Positions 2,465 to 23,808 of a stretch of 64,000 nt of DNA are shown one piece after another (the first letter of the stretch is position 1; each line of letters begins with the position of its first letter). The notes below the pieces were generated by a model, which was given only the letters and a program-made list of their open reading frames with translations, was not told where the DNA came from and searched no databases. This stretch comes from Alphaproteobacteria bacterium (GTDB lineage Bacteria > Pseudomonadota > Alphaproteobacteria > Elsterales > Elsteraceae). The DNA lies in assembly GCA_013298565.1 (NCBI GenBank), contig JAAFIC010000007.1, positions 3,196 through 67,195 of the forward strand, written 5' to 3'. The translations under genes and the position numbers were made by a program.

Positions 2465-2489
2465 GGCCTGCGCGTTTTTAAGAGACTCA

Positions 2490-5371: not shown

Positions 5372-6103
5372 CTAAGCGGTGCGGCTGATCGTATAAGTTC
5401 CGGCGGCCCCGCTTGTGGCGGTCGCGCCGCTGGCACCACCACTGCCATTGATGCCGCTTCTGGCAGAGCCGGTATTGGCTTCGTTAAGCCCACCGGCCCC
5501 GCCGTTACCGCCGTTGCCTGCGACTCCCCCGGTGCCGCCGACGCCGCCCATCGGTTGGCAGTAAATGAGGCCCATGCTGGTTTTCCACAGAACAGTGACA
5601 GAGCCACCATCGGCCCCTGTACCGCCGCCGCCGCCGTTACCGCCATTGCCGGCAGCGCCGCCCGCCCCACCAACAACAGGGCTGGTTTTATGCGTGTTGA
5701 GGCATTTCGAGATATAGTCCGACGAGTCGCTTTGAGGGGCGTCGCCGCCCTTGCCGCCATTCCCGCCGTTGCCACCACTTCCGCCGCTACCACCGTTGCC
5801 GCTTACGGACACGATGCTGAGAGGACCGACGAGCGTGTCGTAAATCAGGCTCAAGGCCGGAGCGATTGTGCCAGATGTTCCACCAGTGCCCGACTTGCCC
5901 GCTTCGCCCGCCGTACCGGGGGCACCGGAGGATGATGGCGCGCAGGTTCCCGAGGGGCAGCAACCGCCGCTGGTGTTGTAACTCCCCGGCGTTCCATCTG
6001 TCCCGGCCTTGCCAGGGCTACCAGGGGTGCCGTTTGCGCCATCCGTTCCGTCAACCCCGAGGATTCTTATCTGGTAGCCGCTCAAATCCAGTGCGCGTGC
6101 CAT
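5372..6103 (-). CDS. Glycine-repeat protein A (collagen-like GXY tracts plus GGN/GGS tracts; hypothetical)
   Basis: A 243-aa ORF preceded by an AGGAA SD. It contains QIRILGVDGTDGANGTPGSPGKAGTDGTPG (eight consecutive G-X-Y triplets), the Cys loop GGCCPSGTCAP, LSIVSVSGNGGSGGSGGNGGNGGKGG, the loop YISKCLNTHK, GGAGGAAGNGGNGGGGGTGADGG, and SVTVLWKTS. It ends in TYTISRTA. Confidence 0.7.
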   Translation of the reverse strand: MARALDLSGYQIRILGVDGTDGANGTPGSPGKAGTDGTPGSYNTSGGCCPSGTCAPSSSGAPGTAGEAGKSGTGGTSGTIAPALSLIYDTLVGPLSIVSVSGNGGSGGSGGNGGNGGKGGDAPQSDSSDYISKCLNTHKTSPVVGGAGGAAGNGGNGGGGGTGADGGSVTVLWKTSMGLIYCQPMGGVGGTGGVAGNGGNGGAGGLNEANTGSARSGINGSGGASGATATSGAAGTYTISRTA

Positions 6104-6212
6104 GGAATGATTTCCTTTGTGCTAGAGCAAATTCCGGGCAGATGGGTTCACCTGCAACGGTGCCTTTGCTTCAAAATCAATGACTGGAAAACGCTGCCGC
6201 GACCCCGAAGGA

Positions 6213-6896
6213 TCAGGCCGGTTGAAAGATGATCTGACCGATTTGGGAGGGAGACGTGGGCGCGCCGTTAGCGCCAGTTGAGCCGCCGCTGCCATAACCG
6301 AGATCCCCGTTGCCCGTCCCTGGTGCCCCGCCGTTCCCGCCCGAGGCCCCTTGACCCGCCCAACCGTATTTGCTCGTGTCCATCGTCATGCTGGTTGCAT
6401 TGTTCTGCTCGAACGTGATCAGAACCGTTGGGCCTTTGGGGGCACCATTGCCACCATTGCCGCCTCTGCCGCCGCCGCCGCCCTGACCGCCTTTGGCGTT
6501 GGCATAGGAAGTCGAGTTGCAGCAACTAACAGCAGTGCCGCCAGCTCCGCCGGTCCCGCCGGTCCCGCCGCCGCCGCCAACTCCGCCGCTGCCGCCCTGG
6601 CCACCGAGAACCTGAAAGATAAAAGCGCCTGTGATTACCTGAGTATAGTTGGTGAAGTCAGGTGCCGGTGAGCCGTCTGTGCCCCGGCCCCCGTCTATTC
6701 CGGCTTGGCCCGTGCCGCCATTTTGCGGCGGGCTTGCCGATGTCCCACAGTTTTGATTTTTGTTGCCGCTACAGGCACCCGCGTAGAAAGCAGCCCCGCT
6801 AGAACCGGCCCCTCCGGTAGCTCCGGCCCCGCCAGCGGTCCCGTTCGCTCCCATGACAAAAAATGTAGGAACAGCATCTGTAGAAACGGAAGTCAT
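6213..6896 (-). CDS. Glycine-repeat protein B (paralog of 5372..6103; hypothetical)
   Basis: A 227-aa ORF preceded by an AGGAGA SD. It has the same module order as protein A: TFFVMGANGTAGGAGATGGAGSSG, the Cys loop ACSGNKNQNC, GGTGQAGIDGGRGTDGSP, AFIFQVLGGQGGSGGVGGGGGTGGTGGAGG, the loop SCCNSTSYAN, GGQGGGGGRGGNGGNG, and TVLITFEQN. It ends in IGQIIFQPA. Confidence 0.7.
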   Translation of the reverse strand: MTSVSTDAVPTFFVMGANGTAGGAGATGGAGSSGAAFYAGACSGNKNQNCGTSASPPQNGGTGQAGIDGGRGTDGSPAPDFTNYTQVITGAFIFQVLGGQGGSGGVGGGGGTGGTGGAGGTAVSCCNSTSYANAKGGQGGGGGRGGNGGNGAPKGPTVLITFEQNNATSMTMDTSKYGWAGQGASGGNGGAPGTGNGDLGYGSGGSTGANGAPTSPSQIGQIIFQPA

Positions 6897-6919
6897 AATT
6901 TTCTCCTGATTTTAGGGTT

Positions 6920-7549
6920 TTATTTGCTAATTATTTGATTTGAAGTGATGCTAACCGGGACATTCATTTGAACGTATCCGCCAGACTCAATGGTAATCGT
7001 CCCGAAGGTTAACTGTGCCGGGTAAGAGCTATCAATGATTAGCGGATTGCTTGCCGTAATCGTAATATCTTGACCGGGCGTGTACGTAATCATCATCGGG
7101 AAATGCAGGCTATTGATAGCGTCTTCATGTTCCGACGAAACGCGGCGGCTATCGCCCAGCACATAGGAGCGCATGTGCGTTGAGAGCGTATCAATATCGT
7201 CTGCCGACAGCAGCGATTTGAACGTGCAGCTATCAGTCTTAGCGCGCTCGATGAGCGCCCGGAAATTGGTAGGGGAGGCCCCTAGGTACGTAATGTGGCG
7301 ATCTGCCCCCGGCGTAGCATCGAAATGCGCGTTGGGAACGCCGCCAATAGCCTTGTATTGGGCGATGTTAGCAACTTCGACTTGCTGGGAGCCAAGGTTA
7401 TCGCGCGATGGATTGCTCGAAATAACCATCGGGCCTTTGTGCGTATTCGGCCCAAAGAAGCGACCTGATAGCGCTTCTACACTCGAGCCAAGCGCCTTTA
7501 AGCGCGGCGCCAGAAAGTTCTGCTGATCTTGGGTAAGCAAAGTGGCCAT
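6920..7549 (-). CDS. Hypothetical protein, first gene of the orphan operon
   Basis: The track ORF extends to 7630. ATG 7549 (MATLLTQDQQNFLAPRLK...) is preceded by AGGAG at 7 nt spacing. The C-terminus looks beta-rich (ITITASNPLIIDSS...LTFGTITIESGGYVQMNVPVSITSNQIISK). I recognise no family. Confidence 0.65.
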   Translation of the reverse strand: MATLLTQDQQNFLAPRLKALGSSVEALSGRFFGPNTHKGPMVISSNPSRDNLGSQQVEVANIAQYKAIGGVPNAHFDATPGADRHITYLGASPTNFRALIERAKTDSCTFKSLLSADDIDTLSTHMRSYVLGDSRRVSSEHEDAINSLHFPMMITYTPGQDITITASNPLIIDSSYPAQLTFGTITIESGGYVQMNVPVSITSNQIISK

Positions 7550-7623
7550 GGAAATTACTCCTGGGAACAAGCCAAGCGGGTGGATTTGGGAAAAGAGCAG
7601 CCTTAAGGCGAAGAAGTCGAAAA

Positions 7624-7649
7624 AACGCAAATTCTGGCTTGCATGTTCA
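7624..7649 (-). promoter_or_regulatory. EcfG-like promoter candidate (tGAAC-N17-CGTT) upstream of the orphan operon
   Basis: The minus strand reads TGAAC-atgcaagccagaatttg-CGTT about 75 nt upstream of ATG 7549. Compare the perfect GGAAC-N16-CGTT sites in this same window at 21926-21950 and 22816-22840. This site has one mismatch in the -35 element. Confidence 0.3.
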
Positions 7650-8680: not shown

Positions 8681-10129
8681 ATGGCTGTAAGTATCGAGAG
8701 TGCGGATACAGGACAGCTTAGATTAACCGCCGCTCAAGGCTACGCCCGCTATTTATCGGTTGCGGTTGTAGGGCAGCGGTTTGCCATTCCTTTAGATCGC
8801 GTTATCGGTGTTACCGAGAGTACAACGCTAACCCCCCTACCGTTTAGCCCACCACCGTTCGAGGGGCTTGTTCTAGCGATGGGGCAAGTGGTGCCGCAAA
8901 TCGGCCTTGCCGCGCTGCTGGGGCTGAAAACCCAGGAAGCGGGCGTGCTTGTCTTGATCTCCGATTTTGGCGGCAGTGTTGGGCTGCGGGTGGACCAGGT
9001 TCATGCTATGATCCAGGTCGATCTCGAACAAGTTACGCTCACCTCCTCGGAGGAGCGAGCCGATGCGCCGATGATCCTTGGGAGATTTGGGGAAGGGGCT
9101 TTAGCGTGCTCCTTGCTCAATCTCGATCACCTCACCACCGATACCGGCATGATGAGCTTCGCCGAGAGCGGGGCGGTTTTGCTAGCGTCTGAAATCGGGG
9201 CCGGGGCGCTGGAGGCGGATGAGGCTAGCTCGGATCAGACCCAGCCCTACTTGATGCTCGACGTTAGCGACGAAGTTTATGCGATCAAAATTGATCATCT
9301 GGTCGAACTGTTGGAGCTTTCCACTCTGCGCCCGGCCCCCCACGCGCCCGCCTGGATCGCTGGGTTGATTGACCGGCGCGGCGCACCGCTGTTGGGATTG
9401 TCGCTCGCGGTGCTCTTGGGACGGCCTGAAGGAAGATCTGGCAAGCTCGGTGTTGTGGTCGCGCTTGAAACGGGGGATGTTGCGCTGATTGCCGATCACA
9501 GCCTTGGGATCGAGCGTTATGCCGCCGATCAAGTGCATGGCTTGCGCGAACCCGTGGCGGGAATTGCGAGCTATCTGGTGAATGCCGATGGCAGCATCGT
9601 GGGCATCCTCGATACGCAAACGCTGCTGAACCCAGTGCAGGATGACGTATGCCTCTGGACGCCCAAGGCAACCACCTCCCCGGTTGCGGTGGCCGGGCCA
9701 GTGACGCCGATGGAATTCCATCAATATCTCACTTTGCGGATTGGGCGGGAGTTTTTGGCCGTGCCGCTGGACCGGATTCAACGGGTGGAAGCTTCCATCG
9801 AGATGACCCCGATCCCGGATCGGGGAACCGGCTTTCATGGGCTGGCTGATGTGGGTGATGCGGTGGTGCCGGTGATTGATCTGCGGCAAGTGCTCAGCGG
9901 TGGGGCCGAGCCGATTGTGCTGGAGGCCAATCCACCGTGTTTGCTGGCGATGGTCGAAGGTGGGATTGCCGGGGTTATCGTTCATCAGGTTCTGCGGATC
10001 GAAACCGTGCCGGAAAACCAGATTAGTCTGGCGGAGGATGTGAATAATTTGCCGATTTCACAAATTATTCACGTTCAGGACCGTCTCATGAGTGTTGTTT
10101 CACTCGACCGGTTGCTTCCACCCCTGTAA
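8681..10129 (+). CDS. Scaffold protein with three tandem CheW-like domains
   Basis: Three repeats of the CheW signature are present: QRFAIPLDRVIGVTE...FEGLVLAMGQVVPQIGLAALLG; EVYAIKIDHLVELLE...IAGLIDRRGAPLLGLSLAVLLG; REFLAVPLDRIQRVEA...FHGLADVGDAVVPVIDLRQVL. Confidence 0.85.
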   Translation: MAVSIESADTGQLRLTAAQGYARYLSVAVVGQRFAIPLDRVIGVTESTTLTPLPFSPPPFEGLVLAMGQVVPQIGLAALLGLKTQEAGVLVLISDFGGSVGLRVDQVHAMIQVDLEQVTLTSSEERADAPMILGRFGEGALACSLLNLDHLTTDTGMMSFAESGAVLLASEIGAGALEADEASSDQTQPYLMLDVSDEVYAIKIDHLVELLELSTLRPAPHAPAWIAGLIDRRGAPLLGLSLAVLLGRPEGRSGKLGVVVALETGDVALIADHSLGIERYAADQVHGLREPVAGIASYLVNADGSIVGILDTQTLLNPVQDDVCLWTPKATTSPVAVAGPVTPMEFHQYLTLRIGREFLAVPLDRIQRVEASIEMTPIPDRGTGFHGLADVGDAVVPVIDLRQVLSGGAEPIVLEANPPCLLAMVEGGIAGVIVHQVLRIETVPENQISLAEDVNNLPISQIIHVQDRLMSVVSLDRLLPPL

Positions 10130-10179
10130 CCCTGAATGCGTAACGCTGATCGTGTGTGTGAGCGTTAGAGAGTACGTCC

Positions 10180-10581
10180 GTGGCGAATACCTGCGTGGTC
10201 CTTATTGGTTTCGAGCCTGTTATGCACGATCTGCTCTTGGATCGGTTGCAGGCGGATTTCCTCAAGCTCACCGCCGCAATAGGCCTTGATGCGGCCTTAA
10301 GCGCGGCGCGCGGCGCAACGGCGGCGGATCGTCTTCTGATTGATATTGATGGTTGCCCGCAGGAGCCTGCGGGGGTCATCGCCAAACTCCGCCTGGTCAG
10401 TGCCGCGCCAATTATCGTTCTCAGTGCCACGGTTGCGCCGGGCAGTGCCAATGCCAGCGCCTTTTTGCAGGCAGGAGCTTCGGCACTGGTCACAAAACCC
10501 GCAGGCGCATTGCCGTTGGTGTGGTCCGGCGAGGCCGGGGAGCCACTTCTCCACGCCCTTCGGGAGGCGCTGACCCGATGA
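10180..10581 (+). CDS. Single-domain receiver-like protein (divergent CheY-like)
   Basis: A 133-aa ORF. LLIDIDGCP is a candidate phospho-Asp site, and IIVLSAT and LVTKP occupy the T/S and K positions. The N-terminal acidic pair is degenerate (LIGFEP). Its stop overlaps the cheA ATG (ATGA). Confidence 0.55.
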   Translation: MANTCVVLIGFEPVMHDLLLDRLQADFLKLTAAIGLDAALSAARGATAADRLLIDIDGCPQEPAGVIAKLRLVSAAPIIVLSATVAPGSANASAFLQAGASALVTKPAGALPLVWSGEAGEPLLHALREALTR

Positions 10582-13313
10582 GCACCAATAACTCCGATCT
10601 GGTCGAACAGTTTGCGATTGAAACCCAGCAGCATCTGGACGAAATCGAACCTATTCTGTTTTTGCCGGAAGGCGAGCTTCCCGATCAAGCCACGATTGCG
10701 GCGCTGTTTCGCGGGTTCCACTCGATCAAGGGTCTCGCCCGCGTGCTGGGGCTGCGCGGGCTGGAGGCGCTGGCCCACCATACAGAAAGCCTGCTGGCGG
10801 AGGTGCGGAGCGCGCGCCAACCGTTCACGCTTGCACTGCGCGATTTGCTGTTGGAAAGCCTCGACGCGATTCGCACACTGCGGGAACACGGCATCGTCGG
10901 TGGTTTGGACGAACGCGCGCCGCCTGCCTTGTTAAACGCGCTGGAGGCGGCGCTGCACTCTGGGGCGAAAGGTGCAACCTTAAACGATGCAAGCCCGCAA
11001 GTTCCCGAAGGCGCGCTCCACCCTGATGCCGAAACGCTCACCTATTTTGCGGAAATGCTGGCGGATTGCCTGCCGGGCCTCGCCGTGCTCGCCGGGGTAA
11101 CTGGCTGGCGCGATCAGGCAGTGAGCGATCTTGAGATGCTGCTGGTGGCGGCTGAAAAATTGGCGTTCCACGGTCTGTCTGCCCGGCTGTATGCGCTGGC
11201 CCCGACCGTCGATCCCGCGAATATCGAGCCTTTTGCCGCTGTCATCGCCGATGCCCGGCGCTTTGGTCGATTGATTGAGCAGGATGTGGGGGCCGAGGCC
11301 GCGTTGGCTGCAATCGCCCCGCTATTGCGCCTGACCCGTGCCGAGATTGCGGCAGATCTGCTGCCCGCTCTTGGCCTCAACGCTACCGAAGCTCGCACGC
11401 TGACCGCACGGCTCGTGACGATTGCAGCGGCAGGGCTTAGCGATGGCGAGATTTCTCTTAACGTGATGCAGAGTTTGGACGCGCCTGCGGTCTATCCGGC
11501 CTTACGTGCCGCGCTTGAAACCTTGGTGAGGGGTGGTAGCTCCGGTAGCGACGACCTCCTGGAGCTAGCCGGGGATCGGCTACGCGAGGCGATTGCGGCC
11601 CCTTGGGTTTTGTCGCCGCCCGTGCGTAAACTTCTCGAAGATCGCGGTATTGCGCCCGCGTTGTTGGGTGATTTGTCGCAAGATCGGATTGGCCCGCTGC
11701 TGGAAATTTTGGCCGGGAGCGAGCGAAGACTGCTGCTGCTCACCCTTGCCTTGCCAGTGCGGGGCGCGCGGGCCGATTTTCTCGCTTGGCTCAACCAGCG
11801 CTTCTTCCCCACGGCGGCGCGCGCGTTCACGCAGAGCGGGGTTGACGTCGCAGCGCTCCTGGTTGTGAGCGCCGACGCCCCACGCGCTATACGCGCCGAT
11901 ATTTTGGCGGCTTACCCCGATCTAGCCTTTGTCGATACCCGCGTGCTAATTGACGATTCAGTGGAAACCCCGTGGTCGCCGCCCCGAACCGCCAACAAAA
12001 TCAGAGGGAGCGACCCTGCCGACAATCAGGTGCGCGTTCCCGTTGAGATTCTGGATCGGTTGTTCGGGCGTATTGGCGAGTTTTTCAGCATCAGTAGCGC
12101 GCTGAACGTCTTGATCGTCGATTCGCAAGTTCCGACCATCCTTCATAAGCTGGCCGATCACGCCATGATCAAGGAACCGGCGCTGCTGCCGATGATCGAC
12201 ACGCTCCAACGCCAGCAGAACGATCTGTCGCAGGTGGAAGCCGAAGTGCATCGGCTGGTCAGCCTCATTCACGAGGCGACGTTGGGGCTGCGGGTCATTC
12301 CGCTCGATATCGTTTTCAACCGTTTCCCGCGCATGGTCCGGGAGTTCGCGAAAGAGGAAGGCAAGCAAATCCGCTTCGAGGCGCGGGCTGACGGCATTAA
12401 GGTCGATAAAGGCATGACCGAGTTGCTGGCTGATCCGCTGATGCACATGCTGCGGAACGCCGTCGATCACGGTATCGAAAGCGCGGCGGAGCGGGCGGCA
12501 ACCCATAAACCGCCGCTCGCTCATATCCGCCTGAGTGCCGAGCAACTCGGCAACCGCATCGTTATCGAAATCCGCGACGATGGCCGGGGTATTGATAGCG
12601 AGCGCGTCCGGCGACGGGCGGTAGCCCAAGGGCTTGTGACCGATTACGACAGCCGCAAGCTCTCGGTAGAGCAGATCAATCGTTTTATCTTCGCGCCCGG
12701 CTTTTCCACTGCCGATAAGGTCAGTGAAACCTCGGGCCGAGGCGTCGGTATGGACGTGGTGCTCATCAACATCTCGCGCCTCGGCGGGCGGATCGACGTT
12801 CGCACAGTGGTGGGGCAAGGGGCGATCTTCCGGCTCGATATGCCGCTGTCGGCGGCGATGCAAACCGTGCTGCTGGCCGAAACTTCGGTTCAAACGGTGG
12901 CCTTCCCCGAACGCATGGTGGTCGAAGCGGCAACCGTGCAACGCGACACTATTCAATACGTCAACGGTCAGCGCGCTATTTTGCACCATGACCGCTTCTT
13001 ACCTTTGTTCGGGCTAACCGACCTGCTTCATATCCCGGCGGGGGTGGATCGGGAAGAGCAGGGGGATTTGTCGGTTATCATCGTCTCCTCCGGGCGCTTT
13101 CGCTATGGGGTTGAAGTCACGCGCATTTTGCGCCGTCACGAAATGCTGATCCGCGAAACTCACCCGCGCATCGCCCAGCTTCCCGGCATCGGTGGGGTCT
13201 CGACCCTCGGCACCGACAGGATTGTGCTGGTGGTCGATCCCGAAGGGCTGACCGATCTTGCCCGCCGGGCCATCGTGCCGGGGATGCGCGTGCCGTCTCA
13301 GGCGGCGGAGTGA
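10578..13313 (+). CDS. cheA: Chemotaxis histidine kinase CheA (911 aa, with a long insert after the HPt domain)
   Basis: The start is taken at ATG 10578 (MSTNNSDLVEQFAIETQQHLDEIE). The upstream part of track ORF 10353.. overlaps the previous gene and looks non-coding (Cys/Arg/Gly-rich). Motifs present: HPt FHSIKGLARVLGL, N-box HMLRNAVDHGIE, DDGRGID, GRGVGMDVV, and a C-terminal CheW-like domain. Confidence 0.9.
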   Translation: MSTNNSDLVEQFAIETQQHLDEIEPILFLPEGELPDQATIAALFRGFHSIKGLARVLGLRGLEALAHHTESLLAEVRSARQPFTLALRDLLLESLDAIRTLREHGIVGGLDERAPPALLNALEAALHSGAKGATLNDASPQVPEGALHPDAETLTYFAEMLADCLPGLAVLAGVTGWRDQAVSDLEMLLVAAEKLAFHGLSARLYALAPTVDPANIEPFAAVIADARRFGRLIEQDVGAEAALAAIAPLLRLTRAEIAADLLPALGLNATEARTLTARLVTIAAAGLSDGEISLNVMQSLDAPAVYPALRAALETLVRGGSSGSDDLLELAGDRLREAIAAPWVLSPPVRKLLEDRGIAPALLGDLSQDRIGPLLEILAGSERRLLLLTLALPVRGARADFLAWLNQRFFPTAARAFTQSGVDVAALLVVSADAPRAIRADILAAYPDLAFVDTRVLIDDSVETPWSPPRTANKIRGSDPADNQVRVPVEILDRLFGRIGEFFSISSALNVLIVDSQVPTILHKLADHAMIKEPALLPMIDTLQRQQNDLSQVEAEVHRLVSLIHEATLGLRVIPLDIVFNRFPRMVREFAKEEGKQIRFEARADGIKVDKGMTELLADPLMHMLRNAVDHGIESAAERAATHKPPLAHIRLSAEQLGNRIVIEIRDDGRGIDSERVRRRAVAQGLVTDYDSRKLSVEQINRFIFAPGFSTADKVSETSGRGVGMDVVLINISRLGGRIDVRTVVGQGAIFRLDMPLSAAMQTVLLAETSVQTVAFPERMVVEAATVQRDTIQYVNGQRAILHHDRFLPLFGLTDLLHIPAGVDREEQGDLSVIIVSSGRFRYGVEVTRILRRHEMLIRETHPRIAQLPGIGGVSTLGTDRIVLVVDPEGLTDLARRAIVPGMRVPSQAAE

Positions 13314-13317
13314 CGCG

Positions 13318-13806
13318 ATGGAGTTTCACTATCTCCACGTCCGCTGTGGCCCTTACCGCATTTTGCTCCCTGGCAAAAACATTGGTGGTATTGATTCCGC
13401 GACCGATGCACCAACGGGACGGCAATCCTTTCGCCGCGCTCGCCGCGAAGGCCGGTTGCCAATGATTGATGCGCGGCGGCTGTTGGGTCTGGCAGCAGAG
13501 GGCGGCGGCACCCCTGTGCACATCTTCTGGCGTCAGCCGGACGGGGCGGTTTGCGCGATTTTAGCGGTGGATGGTGTCGAGGGTCTACGCGGCGGGTTCG
13601 AGGCGGAGTTTCTGCCGCTGCCGCGCGCGCCGCTGGGGTTTCATGAGATGTTTGATCGCTTGGTGTACGATAAGGATGGCAGCTTTCTGCTGCGATTGCG
13701 GCAGAATTTTCAGCCATTTTTGGGCGATATTCCGGGGCGTCGGCGGTTTTTAGGGGCCATTACCGGGGCAACGTGCGGCCCTGCTAGCGGGAAGGTTGCG
13801 CCATGA
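13318..13806 (+). CDS. Divergent CheW-like coupling protein
   Basis: ATG 13318 lies 4 nt after the cheA stop (MEFHYLHVRCGPYRILLPGKNIGGID...ILAVDGVEGLRG...FLLRL). The resemblance to CheW is weak. Its position in the operon supports the call. Confidence 0.5.
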   Translation: MEFHYLHVRCGPYRILLPGKNIGGIDSATDAPTGRQSFRRARREGRLPMIDARRLLGLAAEGGGTPVHIFWRQPDGAVCAILAVDGVEGLRGGFEAEFLPLPRAPLGFHEMFDRLVYDKDGSFLLRLRQNFQPFLGDIPGRRRFLGAITGATCGPASGKVAP

Positions 13807-15500
13807 ACGACCTCGCCAAAAAACGCATTTTGATCGTCGATGATAGTTTCATTATGCGGCGGCTGGTTCGGGAACTGGTGGAAGGCGATCCCGATTTCGA
13901 GGTGGTCGATACTGCCGAAGATGGGCGCATGGCGTTGCAAAAAGTGCGGAGTTGCAAGCCCGATCTGGTTTTGCTCGATATCGAGATGCCTGAAATGTCG
14001 GGGCTGGAAACACTGCGGCGGCTGGGGCTTCGCAGTAAATCGAAAATCGTCATTCTCTCCTCCCTCGGCGGGGCGGGCACGGCAGAGACCGCAGAGGCCC
14101 TGCGCCTCGGCGCGGCTGCGGTGCTGGAGAAACCGTCTGGCGCAATCAGTCTCGATCTACAGGCCCGCAAGGGACACGAGATCGTGCGGACGATGCGGAG
14201 CGTGCTGGATCTTCCCATCCCGGAAGACGTTCAGGCCGCCACCAAAGGCGATGCGTCAGCCCCGAACGGCGAGCAACTCGCTGGGGGGGCGCAGACAGCG
14301 CTGTTTGATGCCGTGTTGAACGGGCTTGGCACGGGGGTGTTGGTTTTCAGCGGCACCGGGCGGTTGCGGGTTTCCAACGCCGCCGCCTTGCACCTGTTGG
14401 GCCGTGACGATACGGCACCCGGCGAACTAACCCTGGAGGCGTTATTCGACGATTATAACGAGGGCATTCTGGCCGACCTGCGCGGCGTGCTCGCGACCGG
14501 CGACGCGCTGGGGCCGGAGTTGACCGATTTCGCCCTGCCCGATGGCGCGTGGCGACCGTTGCGCCTCGCCGCCTCCCGCCTCAACTCTGGCGACGGCGAA
14601 ACCCAAATTCTGGTACTGCTGGAGGATGCGACGCGGGAGAAGGAGATGAAAACCATCCTGTCACGCACGCTGTCGGAGACGGTGGCAACTCAGGTTTTGG
14701 CCGGGCAGTCGCTTAATCTGGGCGGCACGATGCAGGAAACCTCGATCTTATTTTCCGACATCCGCAGCTTTACCACCCTGTCGGAGGAGTTGGGCGCGGC
14801 GGGGATTGTGGAAACGCTGAACGAATATTTCTCCTTCATGGAAGACGTGATTAAGGAGAGCGGCGGCGTTATAGATAAATATATTGGCGACGCGGTTATG
14901 GCGCTGTTCGGTGTTCCGGCTCGGCTGGGTCAAGACCATGACCGGGCAGTGCAGGCGGCGCTTGCGATGCTGGCGGCGCTTGACGTGCTGAACAAGGACC
15001 GGGCGCGGCGCGGGCATCGGCCCATCAACATCGGGATAGGGATTAGCACGGGGCAGGTGATCGCGGGCAACATCGGCTCGCCGACGCGCTCTAACTACAC
15101 GGTTATCGGCGATGCGGTGAACTTGGCCGCGCGCATCGAATCGCTCACCAAACATTACGGCACCGGGATTATGATCTGCGGCGAAACCTTGCGCCGCTTA
15201 GAGCGGCCCGTAACGACGCGCTTGATTGATCGGGTGGAGGTGAAGGGGCAATCGACCGAAACCGCGCTCTATCAGGTCTTTCGTCCAGAAACGCCGCTTA
15301 ACCAAATCTGGCTCGACACTTACGCGCGCGGCTTTCAGTCCTACTGCGACGGCAATTGGTCGAAAGCGCTGACCTGGATGGAAGAAGCCCTTGCCCTAAT
15401 GCCTGACGATAAAGCGGCGGTTCTCATCGCAGATCGCTGTCGTGCGCTTCTTGCCGCATCCCCAGATACCTGGACGGGCGTTTGGGCCTATCATTCCTAA
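13803..15500 (+). CDS. Response regulator: CheB-type receiver, PAS-like domain, class III adenylate/guanylate cyclase and TPR-like tail
   Basis: Receiver: KRILIVDDSFIMRRLVRELVEGDPDFEVVDTAEDGRMALQKVRSCKPDLVLLDIEMPEMSGLETL...VILSSLGG...AVLEKP. Cyclase: ILFSDIRSFTTLSE, VIDKYIGDAVMALFG, YTVIGDAVNLAARIES. Its ATG overlaps the upstream stop. Confidence 0.85.
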   Translation: MNDLAKKRILIVDDSFIMRRLVRELVEGDPDFEVVDTAEDGRMALQKVRSCKPDLVLLDIEMPEMSGLETLRRLGLRSKSKIVILSSLGGAGTAETAEALRLGAAAVLEKPSGAISLDLQARKGHEIVRTMRSVLDLPIPEDVQAATKGDASAPNGEQLAGGAQTALFDAVLNGLGTGVLVFSGTGRLRVSNAAALHLLGRDDTAPGELTLEALFDDYNEGILADLRGVLATGDALGPELTDFALPDGAWRPLRLAASRLNSGDGETQILVLLEDATREKEMKTILSRTLSETVATQVLAGQSLNLGGTMQETSILFSDIRSFTTLSEELGAAGIVETLNEYFSFMEDVIKESGGVIDKYIGDAVMALFGVPARLGQDHDRAVQAALAMLAALDVLNKDRARRGHRPINIGIGISTGQVIAGNIGSPTRSNYTVIGDAVNLAARIESLTKHYGTGIMICGETLRRLERPVTTRLIDRVEVKGQSTETALYQVFRPETPLNQIWLDTYARGFQSYCDGNWSKALTWMEEALALMPDDKAAVLIADRCRALLAASPDTWTGVWAYHS

Positions 15501-15544
15501 CCTTTCCCCTCTCATGCTGACACTTGGCCTCTTGGAGACACATC

Positions 15545-17251
15545 ATGTTTCGTTCCCTTAAGATCAGAGAGAAACTTTTGTTTCCAATCGGCCTGTTGAT
15601 TGCCGTTCTGATTGGCTCGACCTATATGCTCGTAACGGAACTGAGCCGTACGACCAAGACGTTCGAGAGCTTGATTCAAACCGAGTTGCGTGCCCGGTTT
15701 ATCTCCAAAGACCTGTCGGCGATCCTGTCAGATAGTGGCCGCTTGGCCAATCTTATGCTGCTTCAGCGGGAAGCGGCGGATTTCACGGCGACCGCAGATA
15801 GATTACGCAGCTATCTTGCGCTCATCCAACCTCGCCGTGACGAGTTGGGGCGGCTCGCCCCCCATAAGGCCACTGCGCTGGAGAAGGTTACGCTGGCGCT
15901 GGTCTCGATGGAGAAGTCCCTACAACCGACTTTGGACCTAAAGCTCGCTCGGGATTTCGAGGGGGCGGCGGCCTATTGGGCCGCAAATGGCCGTTCCGCG
16001 CTGCTGCCCGCGCTAAACGCCATGAACGAAGCCGCCGACCAATTGCAAGCCGCCGCTGCGAAGGCCGTGGTCGATCAGGTCGATGAGGTCAACGAGCTTG
16101 TCTTGGATTTGGTTATCGGCTTGAGCGCGGTTATTTTCGTAATTGCTGCGTTGGCGCTGCTGATCGTGCTGCGCGGTGTCGTCGCGCCGATCAAACGGCT
16201 TACGGCAAAGATCACTCAACTCTCAGGGGGCGATGGCAATTTCGAGTTGCCGGAAGCCGAACGCGGGGACGAGTTGGGGGCGATGGGCCGCGCGTTGCTG
16301 GTTTTCCGCGAGAACGCTGAGAAAATCAAAGTCGCCATGACCGCCGAAGCCGTGACCATCGAGATTGGGGAGGTGATCGCCCAGGCCGCCCGGAACGATC
16401 TAACCGTTCGAGTGAATCTTGACAATAAAACCGGCTTTCTGCGAAACATCGGCGCGCAGATCAACCAGTTGGTTGAAGGCAGCAATAATACGCTGAGGGA
16501 TATTGGCCTAAAGACCCGGCAAGTGGCAGTGGCCGTAGCGGAAGCCAGCGCGGCGGTGGGCCAAGTTTCGGGCGGGGCGCGCGTGCAGAATAATGCCGTT
16601 GGGCAGGTCACGCAGTCCTTGACGGAATCGGCCAAAGCCATCCGTATGGTTTCGACCAGCGCCAATGTCGCCAATGAAAAGGGCGTGCTGGCCGCCAATC
16701 TGGTGGAACGCGGGCGTGGGTCGGCAGAAGATTTGTCGCGGATTGTCGAAAAAGTCGCCCAGAACAGCCGTAAAATCAGCCAGATCACGCAAGTTATCGC
16801 CGGGATCGCCAACCGCACCCATATTCTATCACTGAACGCTGCCATCGAAGCCGCGCGCGCCGGCGAACACGGCAAGGGCTTCGTCGTCGTCGCTCAGGAA
16901 GTGGGCAAGCTCGCCGAAAGCGCGGCCCAGAACGCCCAACAGATCACCGATATCGTCGAACAAGCAACAGCAGACGCGGCGGCAGGCCATACCGCCTCGA
17001 TGCTGGTGAAGCAGACGATGGAGTCGATTGCAGGCGAGGTTTCGGAAACCAGCCAGATGATCCGGTCGATTGCGGTGGCGATGGAAGAACAGCAGGCTAT
17101 TGTTTCGCAAATCGAAGGCAATGTGACCGAGTTGCGCGGTATCGCTTCGGGCAATGCGGTCGCGGCGGAAGAAATCACCGCTACTATGATCCAACTCTCG
17201 CAACTGGCCGACGATCAGCGCAAGCAGGTCGATCAGTTCAAAACCCAATAA
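15545..17251 (+). CDS. Methyl-accepting chemotaxis protein (2 TM helices, HAMP, MCP signalling domain)
   Basis: ATG 15545 follows a GGAG SD (the track ORF starts at TTG 15524). There are two hydrophobic helices. The signalling hairpin is [41 protein letters not shown]. Confidence 0.9.
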
Positions 17252-17269
17252 CCCCGCTGTGATCAGAAT

Positions 17270-18079
17270 ATGAGCGCGGGGGACGCGGCGATACAGAGCG
17301 TGATGGCGCTGATCGAGGCGCGTTACGGCCTTAATCCGCGCTTGCAGCATGATCGGCTGTCAGCTTTTTTTGCCGACCGTTCCGCCCTTCAGCGTCAAAA
17401 CTTGGCCGATCATCTGCACACCGCGCCGGAGACCGATTCGGTGTGGCAGGCGTTGATCGAAGCCATGCTGGTGCATGAAACCTTCTTCTTTCGCCACAAT
17501 GATCAACTCGCGGTGGTCGCGCGCGATATTTTGCCGGTGTTGCGGCAGCGCGCGCTTGGTAAGCCCTTACAATTGTGGTGCGCGGGTTGCTCGACGGGCG
17601 AGGAAGCCTATACGCTGGCATTTTTGCTGCGGGATACGGGCTGCACTGGAAAAATCCTCGCGAGCGACCTTAGTCCCGAGTCCGTCGCGGAGGCTGTGGC
17701 GGGCCTCTACCGCCGCAAACCCGGCCTTAACAGTTTCCGCGCACTCCCCGAGGCGGCGTGGCGCTATTTCGAGGCGGTCGCGGGAGACGGGTGGCGGGTT
17801 ATGCCAGAGGTGCGCGCGATGGTGTCGTTTCAGGTCCATAATCTGATGCGAACGCTGCAACCGCCCTTGGCCGCCGATCTTATATCCTGCCGGAATACGA
17901 TGATTTATTTCAGCGATGACAGTCGCCGTCACGTCGAAGCAAGCCTGGTTGCCGCCGCCAAGCCCGGCACGGTCCTGCTGCTCGGCCCGGCAGAACGCTT
18001 GCGCTACACCGATGTGTTCGTGCCGATGACCGACGCGCACCCGCAGATTCTGCACTGGCCGCTACCGGGGGGCGCGTAA
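17270..18079 (+). CDS. cheR: Chemotaxis protein methyltransferase CheR
   Basis: ETFFFRH is present, together with the SAM-binding motif LWCAGCSTGEEAYTLAFLL and the CRNTMIYF motif. Confidence 0.9.
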   Translation: MSAGDAAIQSVMALIEARYGLNPRLQHDRLSAFFADRSALQRQNLADHLHTAPETDSVWQALIEAMLVHETFFFRHNDQLAVVARDILPVLRQRALGKPLQLWCAGCSTGEEAYTLAFLLRDTGCTGKILASDLSPESVAEAVAGLYRRKPGLNSFRALPEAAWRYFEAVAGDGWRVMPEVRAMVSFQVHNLMRTLQPPLAADLISCRNTMIYFSDDSRRHVEASLVAAAKPGTVLLLGPAERLRYTDVFVPMTDAHPQILHWPLPGGA

Positions 18080-19080
18080 TGGCGATCCGCGCGGGGTTGA
18101 TTGTGCAAACGGAGTTTCTGCGGCTGGTTTTGCGCCAGTTGTTGCGCCGACAGGTGGGCGTGGAAATCGTTGGGGAGGGCGCGTCTTTGGCCGAGGCAGG
18201 CCAGCTTGCCGCCGTCAATCTGCTGCTGATCGAACGCAGCCTTTGCGCCAGTGCGGCGGAGGTTTTAACCTTGCTTATCCGTTCCCCGACGACGCATTTA
18301 ATGCTGGTCGGGAACGGGGAGGCGGTGGCAAATCTTGCCGGGATTCCGCCCGAGCGCCTAACGCTTCTGGCCGCCGGTAGCGCCTCGGTGGCTCTTGATC
18401 CCTCCTTGCTCGCGGCGCGGCTTGAGGCGGCGCTGCGCGCGTGGCACGTACTTCCCGAGATGCCGTGCCACGTGCCTACCACGGTCCAGCCGCCTCGGCC
18501 CGCCAAGCCGCGCGCGCGCCCGGTAATGATCGGGATTGCCGCTTCCACTGGCGGGCCGGATGCGTTGCAAGACCTGCTGCTGGCGCTCGATCCGCCGCCA
18601 TGCCCCATTGTTGTGGCGCTGCATATTCCGGCGGGGCATACGGCGGGCTTGATCGGTCATCTGGCCCATGCAAGCCGACATCGGGTCTCTCTTGGGGAAA
18701 CCGGGGCGGTGCTAACCCCCGGCATTATTATTCTGCAAGGCGGGATTGATCACGCCGTGGTCCGCGCACGAGATCAGTGGCAGTTGCGCTGCGTGCGCGA
18801 CGGCACGTCGGTATTTCACCCCAATGGCGATATTCTGCTCGGGAGTCTCGCGCGCTTGGGCGTGCCTGTCGCCGGGGTAATTTTGACGGGAATGGGCAAA
18901 GATGGCTGCGCGGGGGCGGAGGCGCTGGCGGCGGTAGGCTATCCCGTTCTCGCGCAAAGCCTCGCGACCTGCGCCGTTCCGGGGATGCCCGCAGCGGCGA
19001 TTGCGGCAGGGGTTGTGACCGACATCGCCTCACCCGCCGACATCGCCCATCGCCTCAATGAGTTCTTTCGCCTGCCGTAG
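18079..19080 (+). CDS. cheB: Protein-glutamate methylesterase CheB with a degenerate N-terminal receiver
   Basis: The catalytic domain is intact: GIAASTGGPDAL (Ser), ALHIPAGH (His), TGMGKDGC (Asp). The N-terminal 110 aa is receiver-like, but the acidic pair is replaced by QTE and the phospho-Asp position reads LLLIERSL (Glu). Confidence 0.85.
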   Translation: MAIRAGLIVQTEFLRLVLRQLLRRQVGVEIVGEGASLAEAGQLAAVNLLLIERSLCASAAEVLTLLIRSPTTHLMLVGNGEAVANLAGIPPERLTLLAAGSASVALDPSLLAARLEAALRAWHVLPEMPCHVPTTVQPPRPAKPRARPVMIGIAASTGGPDALQDLLLALDPPPCPIVVALHIPAGHTAGLIGHLAHASRHRVSLGETGAVLTPGIIILQGGIDHAVVRARDQWQLRCVRDGTSVFHPNGDILLGSLARLGVPVAGVILTGMGKDGCAGAEALAAVGYPVLAQSLATCAVPGMPAAAIAAGVVTDIASPADIAHRLNEFFRLP

Positions 19081-19221
19081 GGGGGGGATTCTGGGGAGTG
19101 ACGCGCATCCGCCACCCCCGTGCCACTGTGCTATGATCAGGATTGCGCCGTCGCCAATGGATCATACCCTAAGGTTAGATCGTCGCGGCCCTCCTTTGCA
19201 ATCAAAAGCCGCAGTCAGAGC

Positions 19222-19461
19222 TTACTTCCAGAGCGGATCGCCCAAGTCGAGATCTTTCTTCTTGGTCAAACCGCCAACCCCAGCGCCAACCGCGCCGCCA
19301 ACAACCGCGCCCGTAACCGGGGAGCCGAGTAGCGCCCCGCCGACTGCGCCAGTCGCGGCACCGATACCGGCACCCGATAGCGCACGGTCCCCCGTGGTGT
19401 TCCCGCAGGCCGCAAGCGCGACTAAGGAACCCGCGAGGAGTAATTTTACGATGGTCATCAT
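19222..19461 (-). CDS. Small glycine-zipper lipoprotein
   Basis: The lipobox is LVALAAC. It is followed by GAGIGAATGAVGGALLGSPVTGAVVGGAVGAGVGG. A GGAGG SD precedes the gene. Confidence 0.7.
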   Translation of the reverse strand: MMTIVKLLLAGSLVALAACGNTTGDRALSGAGIGAATGAVGGALLGSPVTGAVVGGAVGAGVGGLTKKKDLDLGDPLWK

Positions 19462-19491
19462 AGACCTCCCTTTGTAAGCGATTTGGTGATT

Positions 19492-19523
19492 AGAGCCGCG
19501 CGCCTTAACTCTGGCGCGGCTCT
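19492..19523. repeat. Perfect 10-bp-stem inverted repeat in the 5' region of the lipoprotein gene
   Basis: The sequence is AGAGCCGCGC-(12 nt)-GCGCGGCTCT. There is no U-run on either strand. Confidence 0.5.
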
Positions 19524-19541
19524 AAAAGCCGCATCAGGCGT

Positions 19542-19562
19542 GTTTGACACGCCAAGCGTGTC
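19542..19562. repeat. Copy of a dispersed palindromic element (GTTTGAYRCGC..AA..GCG)
   Basis: The sequence is gtttGACACGCcaaGCGTGTC. It is related to the copies at 46041, 46106 and 47623. Confidence 0.5.
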
Positions 19563-19650
19563 GGGTGAGGCGGCGGCCAAGGGCGCGGACGCGCCCGGCC
19601 AAGCGCTTGGCGCGTCAACGCACCTGGCGGCGAGGGCTAAAAGAAAGCGA

Positions 19651-19684
19651 GAGCATCGTGCGTTATAGTTGACGCACGATGCTC
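19651..19684 (-). terminator. Intrinsic terminator of csbD
   Basis: A 12-bp perfect stem, GAGCATCGTGCG-(10 nt)-CGCACGATGCTC, starts at the stop codon. On the minus strand it is followed by GCTTTCTTTT. Confidence 0.6.
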
Positions 19685-19875
19685 TAAGCCTTATCGACAG
19701 CTTTCTTCACGGCATCCTTGGCTTTGCCAACGGCGTGTTGGGCATTGCCCTTCACTTCTTGGGCCACGCCCTCGCGGCGTAGCTGGTTATCGTCGGTGGC
19801 CGAGCCTAAAGATTGTTTGGTCTTTCCAACAATTTCATTAATAGTGCCTTTGATTTTATCAGAGGTACTGCTCAT
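19684..19875 (-). CDS. csbD: CsbD-family stress response protein
   Basis: A 63-aa ORF: KIKGTINEIVGKTKQSLGSATDDNQLRREGVAQEVKGNAQHAVGKAKDAVKK. This is typical of the CsbD family. Confidence 0.85.
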   Translation of the reverse strand: MSSTSDKIKGTINEIVGKTKQSLGSATDDNQLRREGVAQEVKGNAQHAVGKAKDAVKKAVDKA

Positions 19876-20056
19876 AGTTAAAACCCTTTCGTGTTGTGTG
19901 GTGCATCAATGCCTGAGTTTTAGAAGAAAATTCTTCTTATCTCAAAGTTATGATGCTTGGAGTAATTTCAATAATACTGAAGTTTGTGTCGATATTATGG
20001 AGAAGTAAACTTATTTTTTATTTGAAATAATTTAATATACTCTCTGCCGTAACCTG

Positions 20057-21025
20057 CTAGGCGTCCTGCCCCAACCGGTCGATGGGGAAACGAAGGGTCC
20101 AGCGGACACCTTCCGGCGCGAAGATAAGGTGGGAGGTTCCTTCAATTGCGCGGGGCACGAGGCGTTCGATGAGCGACCGCCCAAAACCAAAACGCTCTGG
20201 CGGGGAAACGGTTGCACCGCCCGTTTCGATCCACGTCAATTCAAGCACGATCCGGTTTTCCACCTGCACCCGCTGCCAGGAAATGACAATCGAGCCGAGC
20301 GGGCCGGACAGCGCGCCGTAGCGGTAAGCATTGGTGAGCATCTCGTGCAGGCCGAGGGCCAGATTTTGTGCCGCCTCCGGCCCTACAATCTCCCGCTCGC
20401 CCCGGATCGTTAGGCGATTTTGCAGCGGTGGGTAATCGCCGCCGGTTTCCAGCAGGATCAATTCGCGCAACTCTACCCCGCGCCAGGAATGTTCGATCAG
20501 CAACCCATGCGCGTCGGCTAAGGTTTGCAGGCGGGCGCTGAAGCCTTCCATAAACTCCGGCAGCGTTGCCGCCGAGTTTGCGGTTTGCCGGGCAATTCCG
20601 TTAACAATTGCGAGAAGGTTTTGCGAGCGGTGAGTGAGTTCCCGCAGCACGCTATGAAGGTGCTTTTCTGCGCTCATCAACGGCTCGATCCGCGCCGGGA
20701 GCTTCGAGCACAAGGCCACGGCTGCAAACAGCGCGAGCAACGTCGCCCCTAACCCAGTAGCCTCGATCAACTCTGTCGATACCGGGAGCCAGCGTAGTGC
20801 CACCCCAGTGATTTGGCTAACCCCCCCAGCAAAGGCAAATAACAAGGCGAGAGATGCAGCCCTTTTATACGCTTTGGCCAAGCCTTGATGGCGGTGCATA
20901 GTCCAGATCAACCCGCCCGCCATACAAAAACACGCGAGCGCCAGAATGCTTTCTGAAATCACGGGAAACAGATCGTTTGGGGAGAGGGTCATACCGTCAA
21001 AAAAAGATGGGAAGATTTCCTGCAT
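20057..21025 (-). CDS. Membrane-bound HWE-family sensor histidine kinase (PhyK-like)
   Basis: The N-terminal region has TM helices. The H-box is LTHRSQNLLAIVNGIARQTA, followed by LTWIETGG and ERFGFGRSLIE (HWE signature). It lies immediately downstream of phyR. Confidence 0.8.
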   Translation of the reverse strand: MQEIFPSFFDGMTLSPNDLFPVISESILALACFCMAGGLIWTMHRHQGLAKAYKRAASLALLFAFAGGVSQITGVALRWLPVSTELIEATGLGATLLALFAAVALCSKLPARIEPLMSAEKHLHSVLRELTHRSQNLLAIVNGIARQTANSAATLPEFMEGFSARLQTLADAHGLLIEHSWRGVELRELILLETGGDYPPLQNRLTIRGEREIVGPEAAQNLALGLHEMLTNAYRYGALSGPLGSIVISWQRVQVENRIVLELTWIETGGATVSPPERFGFGRSLIERLVPRAIEGTSHLIFAPEGVRWTLRFPIDRLGQDA

Positions 21026-21064
21026 TGCAGATACTCACCCTATTCCCCTCAGAAAAACGGCGGA

Positions 21065-21865
21065 TTACGCTACTCTGCCGGCTTGCGCGGTTGGCGTTTC
21101 CCCGAAGAACAGCGCTTGGCTAACCACGGCGGTTACGGTTTCTTCGCGGAATGGTTTCGTGATGAGGAATGTCGGCTCCGGGCGTTTTCCGGTTAGCAGG
21201 GATTCAGGGTAGGCGGTGATGAAAATTACCGGTATGTCGAAGGTCTCCAGAATCTCATTCACCGCTTCCAGGCCCGAACTGCCGTCGGCCAGCCGAATAT
21301 CGGCGAGCACCAGGCCGGGGCGGGTTGATTTGGCCAGCATCACCGCTTCCGTATGCGTGCGGGCGTTACCAACGACGGCATGGCCGAGACCGGAAACGAG
21401 AACCTCAAGATCCATCGAGATAATCGGTTCATCCTCGATAATCAGCACGCGCGTCGCAATCTGGCTGCCGATCTCCTGACCCGCGCTGACCATCAACGCG
21501 GTACAATCTTCCAGCAGTAACTCCAGAATCGTCGCGACTTCCTCGGGTCTAAACCCTTCGACGACCGACAGAAGAAAGGCTTGCCGGGGCAGCGGCGTAA
21601 TCCCGCCAATTCGGCGTTCGGTGGGCGAAGCTGGGTCAGCTTCCTCTGCGGTGGCGAGGGGTTGGGCTGAATTCCAAATTTGCGAGAACAGCTTGTACAG
21701 GCTAACGCGCGGATTTCCTGCCTTCTCAAAAACGGCTGGATCGGCAATCAGCGCCTCCAGCAGCGCTACCACATAGGCATCGCCACTCGCTTGAGTGCCT
21801 GACAGCGCCCGCGCATAACGCCGGAGTAAGGGTAATTGTGGGGCGACAAGAGCAGAAATAGACAT
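21065..21865 (-). CDS. phyR: PhyR anti-anti-sigma factor (ECF sigma-like domain plus receiver)
   Basis: The N-terminal part is sigma-like (LLRRYARALSGTQASGDAYVVALLEAL...FLLSVVEGFRPEEVATIL). The C-terminal part is a receiver (VLIIEDEPIISMDLEVLV...LVLADIRLADGSSG). Confidence 0.9.
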   Translation of the reverse strand: MSISALVAPQLPLLRRYARALSGTQASGDAYVVALLEALIADPAVFEKAGNPRVSLYKLFSQIWNSAQPLATAEEADPASPTERRIGGITPLPRQAFLLSVVEGFRPEEVATILELLLEDCTALMVSAGQEIGSQIATRVLIIEDEPIISMDLEVLVSGLGHAVVGNARTHTEAVMLAKSTRPGLVLADIRLADGSSGLEAVNEILETFDIPVIFITAYPESLLTGKRPEPTFLITKPFREETVTAVVSQALFFGETPTAQAGRVA

Positions 21866-21925
21866 GGGGTAATAACCTCGCCCGGCATTTCACAAACCCC
21901 AATATCGGGTCAGTCCACCTTACGA

Positions 21926-21950
21926 AACGCCTTGGGCAAAACTAAGTTCC
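21926..21950 (-). promoter_or_regulatory. EcfG-type promoter for phyR (GGAAC-N16-CGTT)
   Basis: The plus strand reads AACG-N16-GTTCC, which is a perfect consensus on the minus strand. It lies about 60 nt upstream of the phyR ATG. Confidence 0.65.
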
Positions 21951-21978
21951 CGATATTGGGAGAATTAAGCTGACCGGC

Positions 21979-22003
21979 GGAACTTTTAACACAGCGGGGG
22001 GTT
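21979..22003 (+). promoter_or_regulatory. EcfG-type promoter candidate for nepR-ecfG (GGAAC-N16-GGTT)
   Basis: The sequence is GGAAC-ttttaacacagcgggg-GGTT, about 40 nt upstream of the nepR ATG. The -10 element matches at 3 of 4 positions. Confidence 0.45.
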
Positions 22004-22043
22004 TTACTGTCACCCTCGCCCCCGCTATGAAAGTAGAGAACGG

Positions 22044-22806: not shown

Positions 22807-22815
22807 ATTTTAGCA

Positions 22816-22840
22816 GGAACTAAATTAAGTGTTAAGCGTT
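22816..22840 (+). promoter_or_regulatory. EcfG-type promoter (perfect GGAAC-N16-CGTT) for the DUF883 operon
   Basis: The sequence is GGAAC-taaattaagtgttaag-CGTT, in an AT-rich spacer about 100 nt upstream of ATG 22938. Confidence 0.7.
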
Positions 22841-23799: not shown

Positions 23800-23808
23800 T
23801 TCGCAGCG

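Follow-up and report, generated by a model that had tools for sequence, protein, structure and literature searches.

A chemosensory gene cluster in an alphaproteobacterium whose only canonical receiver lies on a putative class IIIb adenylate cyclase

Chemosensory arrays provide high gain, a wide dynamic range and methylation-based memory. Besides motility, their best-understood direct second-messenger output is cyclic di-GMP (c-di-GMP), as in the Wsp system, and the link of the Pil-Chp system to cyclic AMP (cAMP) through CyaB is indirect. Here, a chemosensory (Che) gene cluster was analyzed at positions 8681-19080 of a 64,000-nucleotide stretch of DNA, hereafter the window, from an alphaproteobacterium of the Elsteraceae (assembly GCA_013298565.1, contig JAAFIC010000007.1, positions 3,196 to 67,195 of the forward strand). 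The response regulator encoded in this cluster combines a receiver (REC), a PAS domain and a class III nucleotide cyclase, and the features of its sequence and of the linked genes make it probable that the cluster constitutes a dedicated chemosensory pathway with cAMP output.

Four described systems share parts of this arrangement. The cluster resembles Wsp (WspA-F, with the REC-GGDEF protein WspR) in that a complete Che-like set is combined with a response regulator that is itself a nucleotide cyclase. It differs from Wsp in its output enzyme, a class III mononucleotide cyclase instead of a GGDEF protein producing c-di-GMP (no GGDEF domain was detected in the cluster by Pfam), in a CheA lacking a C-terminal receiver, and in the presence of a receptor of Tsr length and 36-heptad-like (36H-like) class, a triple-CheW protein, a pseudo-CheY, a divergent CheW and a CheB with a pseudo-receiver. 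Pil-Chp of Pseudomonas aeruginosa likewise places cAMP under chemosensory control, and the catalytic domain of its cyclase CyaB shares 37% identity with the one described here (TM 0.88 by Foldseek). CyaB has no receiver, is regulated indirectly via PilG and others, and belongs to a system that also runs type IV pili, whereas the cyclase described here carries its own receiver and has no pilus genes linked to it. CyaC of Spirulina and Anabaena is similar in its attached receiver and in its class IIIb catalytic domain with the Lys/Thr pair, and phosphorylation of the receiver raises its cyclase activity (PMC3009899). The input of CyaC comes, however, from a histidine kinase module of its own or from the phytochrome-like kinase AphC, not from an array CheA, and CyaC has no methylation-based adaptation. 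The CheOp3 system of Rhodobacter sphaeroides (CheA3/CheA4, CheY6, CheB2) shares with the cluster CheY6-type receivers with a long, P1-contacting loop (KPSG...) and a CheA without P2; in the complex of CheA3-P1 with CheY6, the beta5-alpha5 loop touches P1, and CheA3 has no P2 domain (PMC2817712). CheOp3 acts on the flagellar motor via free CheY6 and uses the split kinase CheA3 plus CheA4, whereas the present cluster has one complete CheA kinase, and a CheY6-type receiver forms part of the cyclase protein. The closest system is Wsp/WspR by logic, Pil-Chp/CyaB by messenger, CyaC by enzyme regulation and CheOp3 by receiver type.

A che cluster with a REC-mononucleotidyl-cyclase regulator was tabulated in a 2012 survey of CheR-TPR clusters (supplementary table; PMC3447774). 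A full-text literature search, in which journal coverage was incomplete, returned no experimental work on a CheA-to-cyclase pathway. A sequence-only reading of this locus had regarded a REC-adenylate-cyclase output as experimentally uncharacterized. This does not hold for the control of a cyclase by a receiver, which is already known from CyaC (PMC3009899), and it seems to hold for the Che-coupled case, for which no study was found.

The cluster consists of eight plus-strand reading frames, all intact and with high third-position GC. In gene order, they encode a triple-CheW scaffold of 482 aa (8681..10129; Pfam CheW in three stretches, E 5e-51), a predicted degenerate CheY6-type receiver of 133 aa (RECL, 10180..10581; without Pfam match and identified by comparing its family profile with the PDB), the histidine kinase CheA of 911 aa (10578..13313; Pfam Hpt, HATPase_c and CheW), a predicted divergent CheW-fold protein of 162 aa (WL, 13318..13806; without Pfam match and identified by AlphaFold2 and Foldseek), the putative REC-PAS-class IIIb cyclase of 565 aa (13803..15500; Pfam Response_reg, E 2.9e-22, and Guanylate_cyc, E 1.2e-27, with PAS and TPR_2 below threshold), a transmembrane methyl-accepting chemotaxis protein (MCP) of 568 aa (15545..17251; Pfam HAMP and MCPsignal), the methyltransferase CheR of 269 aa (17270..18079; Pfam CheR, E 3e-41) and the methylesterase CheB of 333 aa with an N-terminal pseudo-receiver (18079..19080; Pfam CheB_methylest, E 3e-40). 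ATGA overlaps connect the small receiver gene with cheA (10578-10581) and the CheW-like gene with the cyclase gene (13803-13806), cheR and cheB overlap by 1 nt at 18079, and the remaining gaps measure 50, 4, 44 and 18 nt. The junctions are operon-like, confirming the previously described set of eight tightly linked, partly overlapping plus-strand genes, and the triple-CheW protein, CheA, the one MCP, CheR and CheB of that description each obtained their Pfam matches. The Che core of MCP, CheW, CheA and a receiver-bearing response regulator is present, with Pfam matches for all four.

The AlphaFold2 model of the cyclase protein (pLDDT 82.6) comprises a REC domain (residues 7-134), a disordered linker (144-163), a PAS domain (164-275), a helical linker (277-299), the cyclase domain (307-492) and three confident C-terminal helices (501-551). 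TPR_2 gave a single match in this tail, at 19.7-23.5 bits against a cut-off of 27 bits. From the model, the tail is best described as a single TPR-like motif, and the REC-PAS-cyclase-TPR layout proposed earlier was retained for its first three domains, with the TPR reduced to this one motif. Across an alignment of 30 family members (47-80% identity), D13, D14, D59, S86, K110 and P111 of the receiver were invariant, the reference positions being D12, D13, D57, T87 and K109 of CheY. Within the cluster, the canonical D-D-D-S/T-K set was found on the cyclase receiver only, where it is kept in all 30 relatives; the other two receivers have lost the acidic pair, and the view that the sole canonical receiver of the cluster sits on the cyclase is upheld.

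The catalytic domain was equally conserved. The residues that bind metal (D319, D363), specify the purine (K359, T433) and act in the transition state (N440, R444) were invariant in the same alignment, including all of the metal-binding Asp residues, the purine-specifying Lys and the Asn/Arg pair that had been recognized from the translation. Apart from T433, which is within YTVIGD, the motifs are FSDIRSF, DKYIGD (K359), IGDAVMA and AVNLAARIE. We take K359 and T433 to be the specificity positions from established knowledge of CyaC and mammalian cyclases. Adenylate cyclases of class IIIb are marked by the combination of Lys with Thr, the latter replacing the Asp of class IIIa. Because the second specificity residue is Thr, the enzyme is assigned by its residues to class IIIb, with the Lys/Thr pair pointing to ATP, in line with the earlier suggestion that the residues favour cAMP.

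By Foldseek, the catalytic domain also matched the guanylyl cyclase Cya2 with 40% identity, the best sequence match among solved cyclases, and CyaC of S. platensis with 33%. The match to Cya2 would suit a pathway of the same architecture and other chemistry, with a cyclase that is inhibited by phosphorylation or that makes cGMP or some other cyclic nucleotide instead of cAMP. Such a pathway is considered unlikely: Lys359 and Thr433 are invariant in the family and constitute the pair that selects adenine in CyaC and other class IIIb cyclases, and Cya2 carries Glu and Gly at the equivalent positions. Negative control does have a precedent in the Dictyostelium cyclase ACR, on which one receiver acts negatively (PMC3009899).

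The other two receivers of the cluster were compared with their relatives. Pfam recognizes no receiver in the 133-aa protein. A word-index search for its relatives gave four, and orthologues were therefore taken from syntenic loci, resulting in an alignment of three database relatives and five syntenic orthologues. The profile of this family matched R. sphaeroides CheY6 in the PDB (3kyj_B, E 3.2e-14), followed by many other receivers, in agreement with the earlier description of the protein as receiver-like, and hhalign matched the entire protein to the free CheY of the split clusters described below (probability 97.4%). D55 (the phospho-Asp position), D57 and K106 do not vary within the family, K106 being followed by Pro here. 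The acidic pair is replaced by G-F here and is poorly conserved in other genomes; S83 is present here, and the Thr/Ser position varies across the family. Judged by these residues, the protein appears to be a divergent, degenerate receiver, and it is kept in every cluster that covers its position. An elongated beta5-alpha5 loop follows the Lys-Pro in both the cyclase receiver (KPSGAISLDLQARKGHE) and the small receiver (KPAGALPLVWSGEAGEP), aligned with that of CheY6 (KPSGTVSHDLEEKTGGE), and both proteins are classified on this sequence feature as CheY6-type. The N-terminal domain of the window CheB gave no Pfam receiver match even at E<=1, and neither the acidic pair nor the Lys is left in any of the six cyclase-linked clusters compared; CheB of the Azospirillum relatives has retained both and carries a canonical receiver.

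About 50 open reading frames (ORFs) of the window were scanned with Pfam, a few small ones remaining unscanned, and neither a free canonical CheY nor CheZ, CheX, CheC or CheD was found, nor any flagellar or pilus gene; the earlier statement that the cluster has no canonical CheY and no CheZ/CheX thus extends to the scanned ORFs. These results bear on the alternative that motility is still controlled, with the 133-aa receiver or a CheY encoded elsewhere acting on the motor and the REC-cyclase being a side branch or phosphate sink. Free CheY6-type proteins are indeed used by Rhodobacter CheOp3 and by the nearest cyclase-less relatives, of the Azospirillum type, D55, S83 and K106 are retained in the small receiver, which is never missing where its position is covered, and the MCP is 36H-like, a class typical of flagellar systems. 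This alternative is nevertheless judged improbable, as the Mg-binding pair of the small receiver is G-F here and eroded elsewhere, the scanned ORFs hold no motility genes, and the fused receiver is under much stronger constraint, with D13, D14, D59, S86 and K110 invariant. With the sole canonical receiver on the cyclase and no motility genes among the scanned ORFs, the designation as an alternative cellular function (ACF) system appears justified functionally. The Tsr-length, 36H-like receptor and the presence of CheY6-type receivers point to a flagellar-type ancestry, not to one in the Wsp-type class.

CheA comprises P1, a variable middle region of ~360 aa, a P3-like segment, P4 and P5. His48 of the P1 Hpt domain lies in FHSIKG and, together with the N, G1, F and G2 boxes, is invariant in eight orthologues. 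The middle region (residues ~100-480; window 10875-12017) gave no Pfam match at E<=1 and contains no recognizable P2, and it is shorter, with part deleted, in the Pannonibacter and Rhizobium orthologues. Inspected by eye, it starts with a segment resembling a second Hpt without the His. The idea that this region is a CheY-P phosphatase like that of Rhodobacter CheA3 was unsupported, since tblastn against CheOp3-type loci matched P1 and P3-P5 only.

Two further components belong to the CheW fold. Orthologues of the triple-CheW scaffold, of 457-485 aa, are found in every cyclase-linked cluster extending that far. The 162-aa protein was modelled with AlphaFold2 (pLDDT 79.9), and the top 18 Foldseek matches in the PDB were all CheW or CheA-P5 (best E 1.5e-5, TM ~0.6), supporting its earlier annotation as CheW-like; its profile matched CheW 2qdl with E 0.07. 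The model thus suggests a member of the CheW fold, and a divergent one because the Pfam CheW family is unmatched. It has 18 database relatives, and its profile matched 105 clusters at E<=1e-3 and 23 at E<=1e-10 among 1.84 billion representative proteins; since the family matches so few, it is regarded as a rare, specialized CheW paralogue. In the contexts inspected, its gene is always located between cheA and the cyclase gene.

In the MCP, two hydrophobic, presumably membrane-spanning segments flank a sensor domain of ~155 aa without a Pfam or PDB sequence match, followed by HAMP and the signalling domain. Its C-terminal arm aligns with that of Escherichia coli Tsr without gaps to the end (FKTQ versus FRIQ), save one column opened by a second receptor of the window, and 126-127 aa follow the hairpin-tip Glu in the four orthologues compared (4/4). 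This gapless alignment and the equal tip-to-end length indicate a 36H-like bundle. There is no C-terminal tether or pentapeptide. A Glu-Glu pair is conserved at the Tsr E493 methylation site, and the catalytic residues S156, H182 and D275 of CheB are invariant. By these residues, a set for methylation-based adaptation appears to be present, with CheR, the CheB triad and the receptor Glu pair. The second receptor is an orphan MCP (HAMP and MCPsignal) encoded on the minus strand at 26176-28152. Its tip motif is unlike that of the cluster MCP, and its C-terminal arm carries a 14-residue insertion relative to both Tsr and the cluster MCP, placing it in a longer heptad class; it probably feeds a different Che system encoded elsewhere.

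The cyclase and its genomic contexts were then compared between genomes. The closest relatives suggest, as the source of the window, a Rhodospirillales bacterium close to Elstera. The cyclase has at least 120 relatives in the database, counted as clusters at 90% identity, that match it at no less than 46% identity over nearly its full length; nearly all of them have 547-595 aa. The same flanking genes surround the cyclase gene in 14 of 14 contexts, the fullest holding all eight genes and short contigs those that fit. These contexts are the window, Pannonibacter carbonis, Rhizobium sp. RU36D, Humitalea rosea, two metagenome contigs, metagenome-assembled genomes (MAGs) labelled Vicinamibacteria, Chthoniobacteraceae (two), Bradyrhizobium and Xanthobacteraceae, and three long contigs. 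They span Alphaproteobacteria plus MAGs of Verrucomicrobiota and Acidobacteriota, the MAG labels to be treated with caution. The order RECL-CheA-WL-cyclase is constant wherever the contig covers it, and the triple-CheW gene and the MCP-CheR-CheB unit move. Beyond the 14 contexts, the same partial arrangement was seen on a short contig (L167, CAMCIN010000212.1). This contig is labelled Akkermansia muciniphila and has its best relatives among Chthoniobacteraceae MAGs. An unrelated REC-cyclase is encoded at L049, a locus that bears the label Klebsiella pneumoniae. Both taxon labels may be wrong. REC-cyclases without PAS, of 35-40% identity (L003-L055), lie outside che clusters and were therefore set aside as a different family. 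Azospirillum species have the same che type and no cyclase.

Conservation of this kind speaks against the view that a former chemotaxis operon is decaying here and no longer functions. Such a remnant might well show degeneration in two of its three receiver domains, and a CheA middle region and an MCP sensor domain that belong to no recognizable family. However, all eight frames are intact, the residues needed for catalysis in CheA, CheB and the cyclase do not vary between clusters with cyclases that are ~45-80% identical, and the gene set is conserved across phyla, making decay very hard to credit.

Split relatives of the cluster were found at five loci, in Stellaceae, Reyranella, Enhydrobacter, Acetobacteraceae and an unclassified alphaproteobacterium (L170, L173, L174, L176 and L178). 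Their gene order is MCP, CheR, multi-CheW (seen in three of the five), CheB with a canonical receiver, free CheY, CheA and cyclase. The cyclases of these loci have no receiver. They are PAS-cyclase-TPR-like proteins, 40-43% identical to residues 149/169-560 of the window protein, except for that of L178, a GAF-PAS-cyclase with 35% identity over residues 72-561. As cyclases without receivers occur in che clusters, the link between Che and cyclase is independent of the fusion. The free, canonical CheY of the split loci shares 52-56% identity with the fused receiver, and its position is occupied in the window by the small degenerate receiver. L173 encodes a ~130-aa homologue of the CheW-like protein between cheA and the cyclase gene (hhalign probability 96.6%). 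In a neighbour-joining tree, the fused receivers formed one clade in 81 of 100 bootstraps. A specific derivation of the fused receiver from the free CheY of split clusters was not supported, the sister relation being recovered in 7 of 100 bootstraps of that tree. On the simplest reading, a PAS-cyclase was already associated with Che, a CheY6-type receiver was fused to it once, and the original CheY and the CheB receiver then decayed.

The predictions that the earlier reading made at the sequence level held, and its proposal of a Che pathway with a cyclic-nucleotide output is supported. From gene content, domains, residue conservation and synteny, we infer the following route, including its phosphotransfer, its product, the sign of its regulation and the tethering of the cyclase, and we infer cAMP effectors downstream of it. 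The single transmembrane MCP would sense a periplasmic ligand and form an array with CheA, the triple-CheW protein and the divergent CheW-like protein. CheA would autophosphorylate on His48 of P1, and the phosphoryl group would be passed directly from P1 to Asp59 of the CheY6-type receiver of the cyclase, much as CheA3-P1 of Rhodobacter serves CheY6; transfer is expected to be direct because this CheA has no P2 docking domain. Phosphorylation of the receiver would act via PAS and the helical linker to alter the pairing of the obligately dimeric class IIIb domains and change cAMP synthesis. By analogy to CyaC and WspR, activation is the more likely direction of this control. CheR and CheB would adapt the receptor by methylation and, with a degenerate receiver on CheB, demethylation is probably free of CheA feedback. 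We regard the 133-aa pseudo-CheY as a probable relic or P1-binding modulator, and the CheW-like protein, encoded beside the cyclase, may tether the cyclase to the array.

The last of these suggestions can be carried further, to a distinct, rare, cyclase-centred lineage in which the cyclase would be held in the array via the CheW-like protein and perhaps its TPR-like tail, all CheA phosphoryl flux would reach the cyclase, an ancestral CheY and the receiver of CheB having turned into pseudo-receivers by decay, CheB feedback would be absent, and the unit would have spread by horizontal transfer across phyla. The gene of the CheW-like protein is translationally coupled to the cyclase gene and is also kept in the split form L173. 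This fuller proposal is offered as tentative, with doubt outweighing support.

Several observations weigh against a dedicated cAMP pathway. With a guanylyl cyclase as the best-matching solved cyclase, the nucleotide specificity rests on two residues. The 133-aa receiver, with its Asp, Ser and Lys and one acidic residue in some orthologues, could accept phosphate and so provide a sink or an additional output. As the analysis covered the window of this genome, cross-talk with further Che systems is possible. No CRP or cNMP-binding gene was found among the scanned ORFs, so that the search for such effectors proposed earlier came back empty for them, and only one orthologous locus, that of Humitalea rosea, has a cNMP-binding gene beside the cluster.

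In H. rosea (L081, QKYU01000007), a 178-aa cNMP_binding protein encoded at 15620-16156 on the minus strand adjoins the MCP of the orthologous cluster and is a candidate cAMP effector; its gene is followed by a type I secretion ABC/C39 exporter set. Searched with this protein by tblastn, neither the window nor any of the other orthologous loci gave a match.

The surroundings of the cluster vary from genome to genome, so that conservation ends with the eight genes. Directly downstream in the window lies a general-stress-response locus (19222-24915), an adjacency not seen in the orthologous loci. It comprises, on the minus strand, genes for a Gly-zipper lipoprotein (19222-19461), CsbD (19684-19875, then a strong hairpin at 19650-19685), an HWE histidine kinase (20057-21025), PhyR (21065-21865) and a REC-HisKA_2 kinase (23809-24915), and, on the plus strand, an ECF sigma factor (22120-22806). 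A nepR gene, for the small anti-sigma factor to be expected in a locus of this type, was not located. Upstream of the cluster, an ORF of >840 aa runs off the window start (2-2524, minus strand) and three ORFs of 227-243 aa lie at 5372-7630 (minus strand), all without Pfam match; the GC content at 6-8 kb of the window is 0.556, below that of the flanks. Among the orthologous loci, a metagenome contig (L083) encodes two tandem 1116-aa SAM-Guanylate_cyc-AAA_16 proteins downstream of the cluster (14742-21526, minus strand), and L243 encodes, near the cluster and beside NiFe hydrogenase genes, a chemoreceptor with Cache_3-Cache_2, HAMP, MCPsignal and a C-terminal PilZ (17938-19923, minus strand).

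If true, phosphorylation of a REC-adenylate cyclase by CheA would be the simplest possible wire from a chemoreceptor to cAMP, and, should the cyclase also be a component of the array, the cluster would amount to a methylation-adapting, array-amplified cAMP generator. The system would then offer a clean model for the control of class III cyclases by receivers, for adaptation without CheB feedback and for the roles of pseudo-receivers and extra CheW proteins. As it is carried by cultured strains (Humitalea rosea, Pannonibacter, Rhizobium sp. RU36D and Elstera relatives), it is directly testable, and its fused and split forms provide a natural experiment on the evolution of such wiring.

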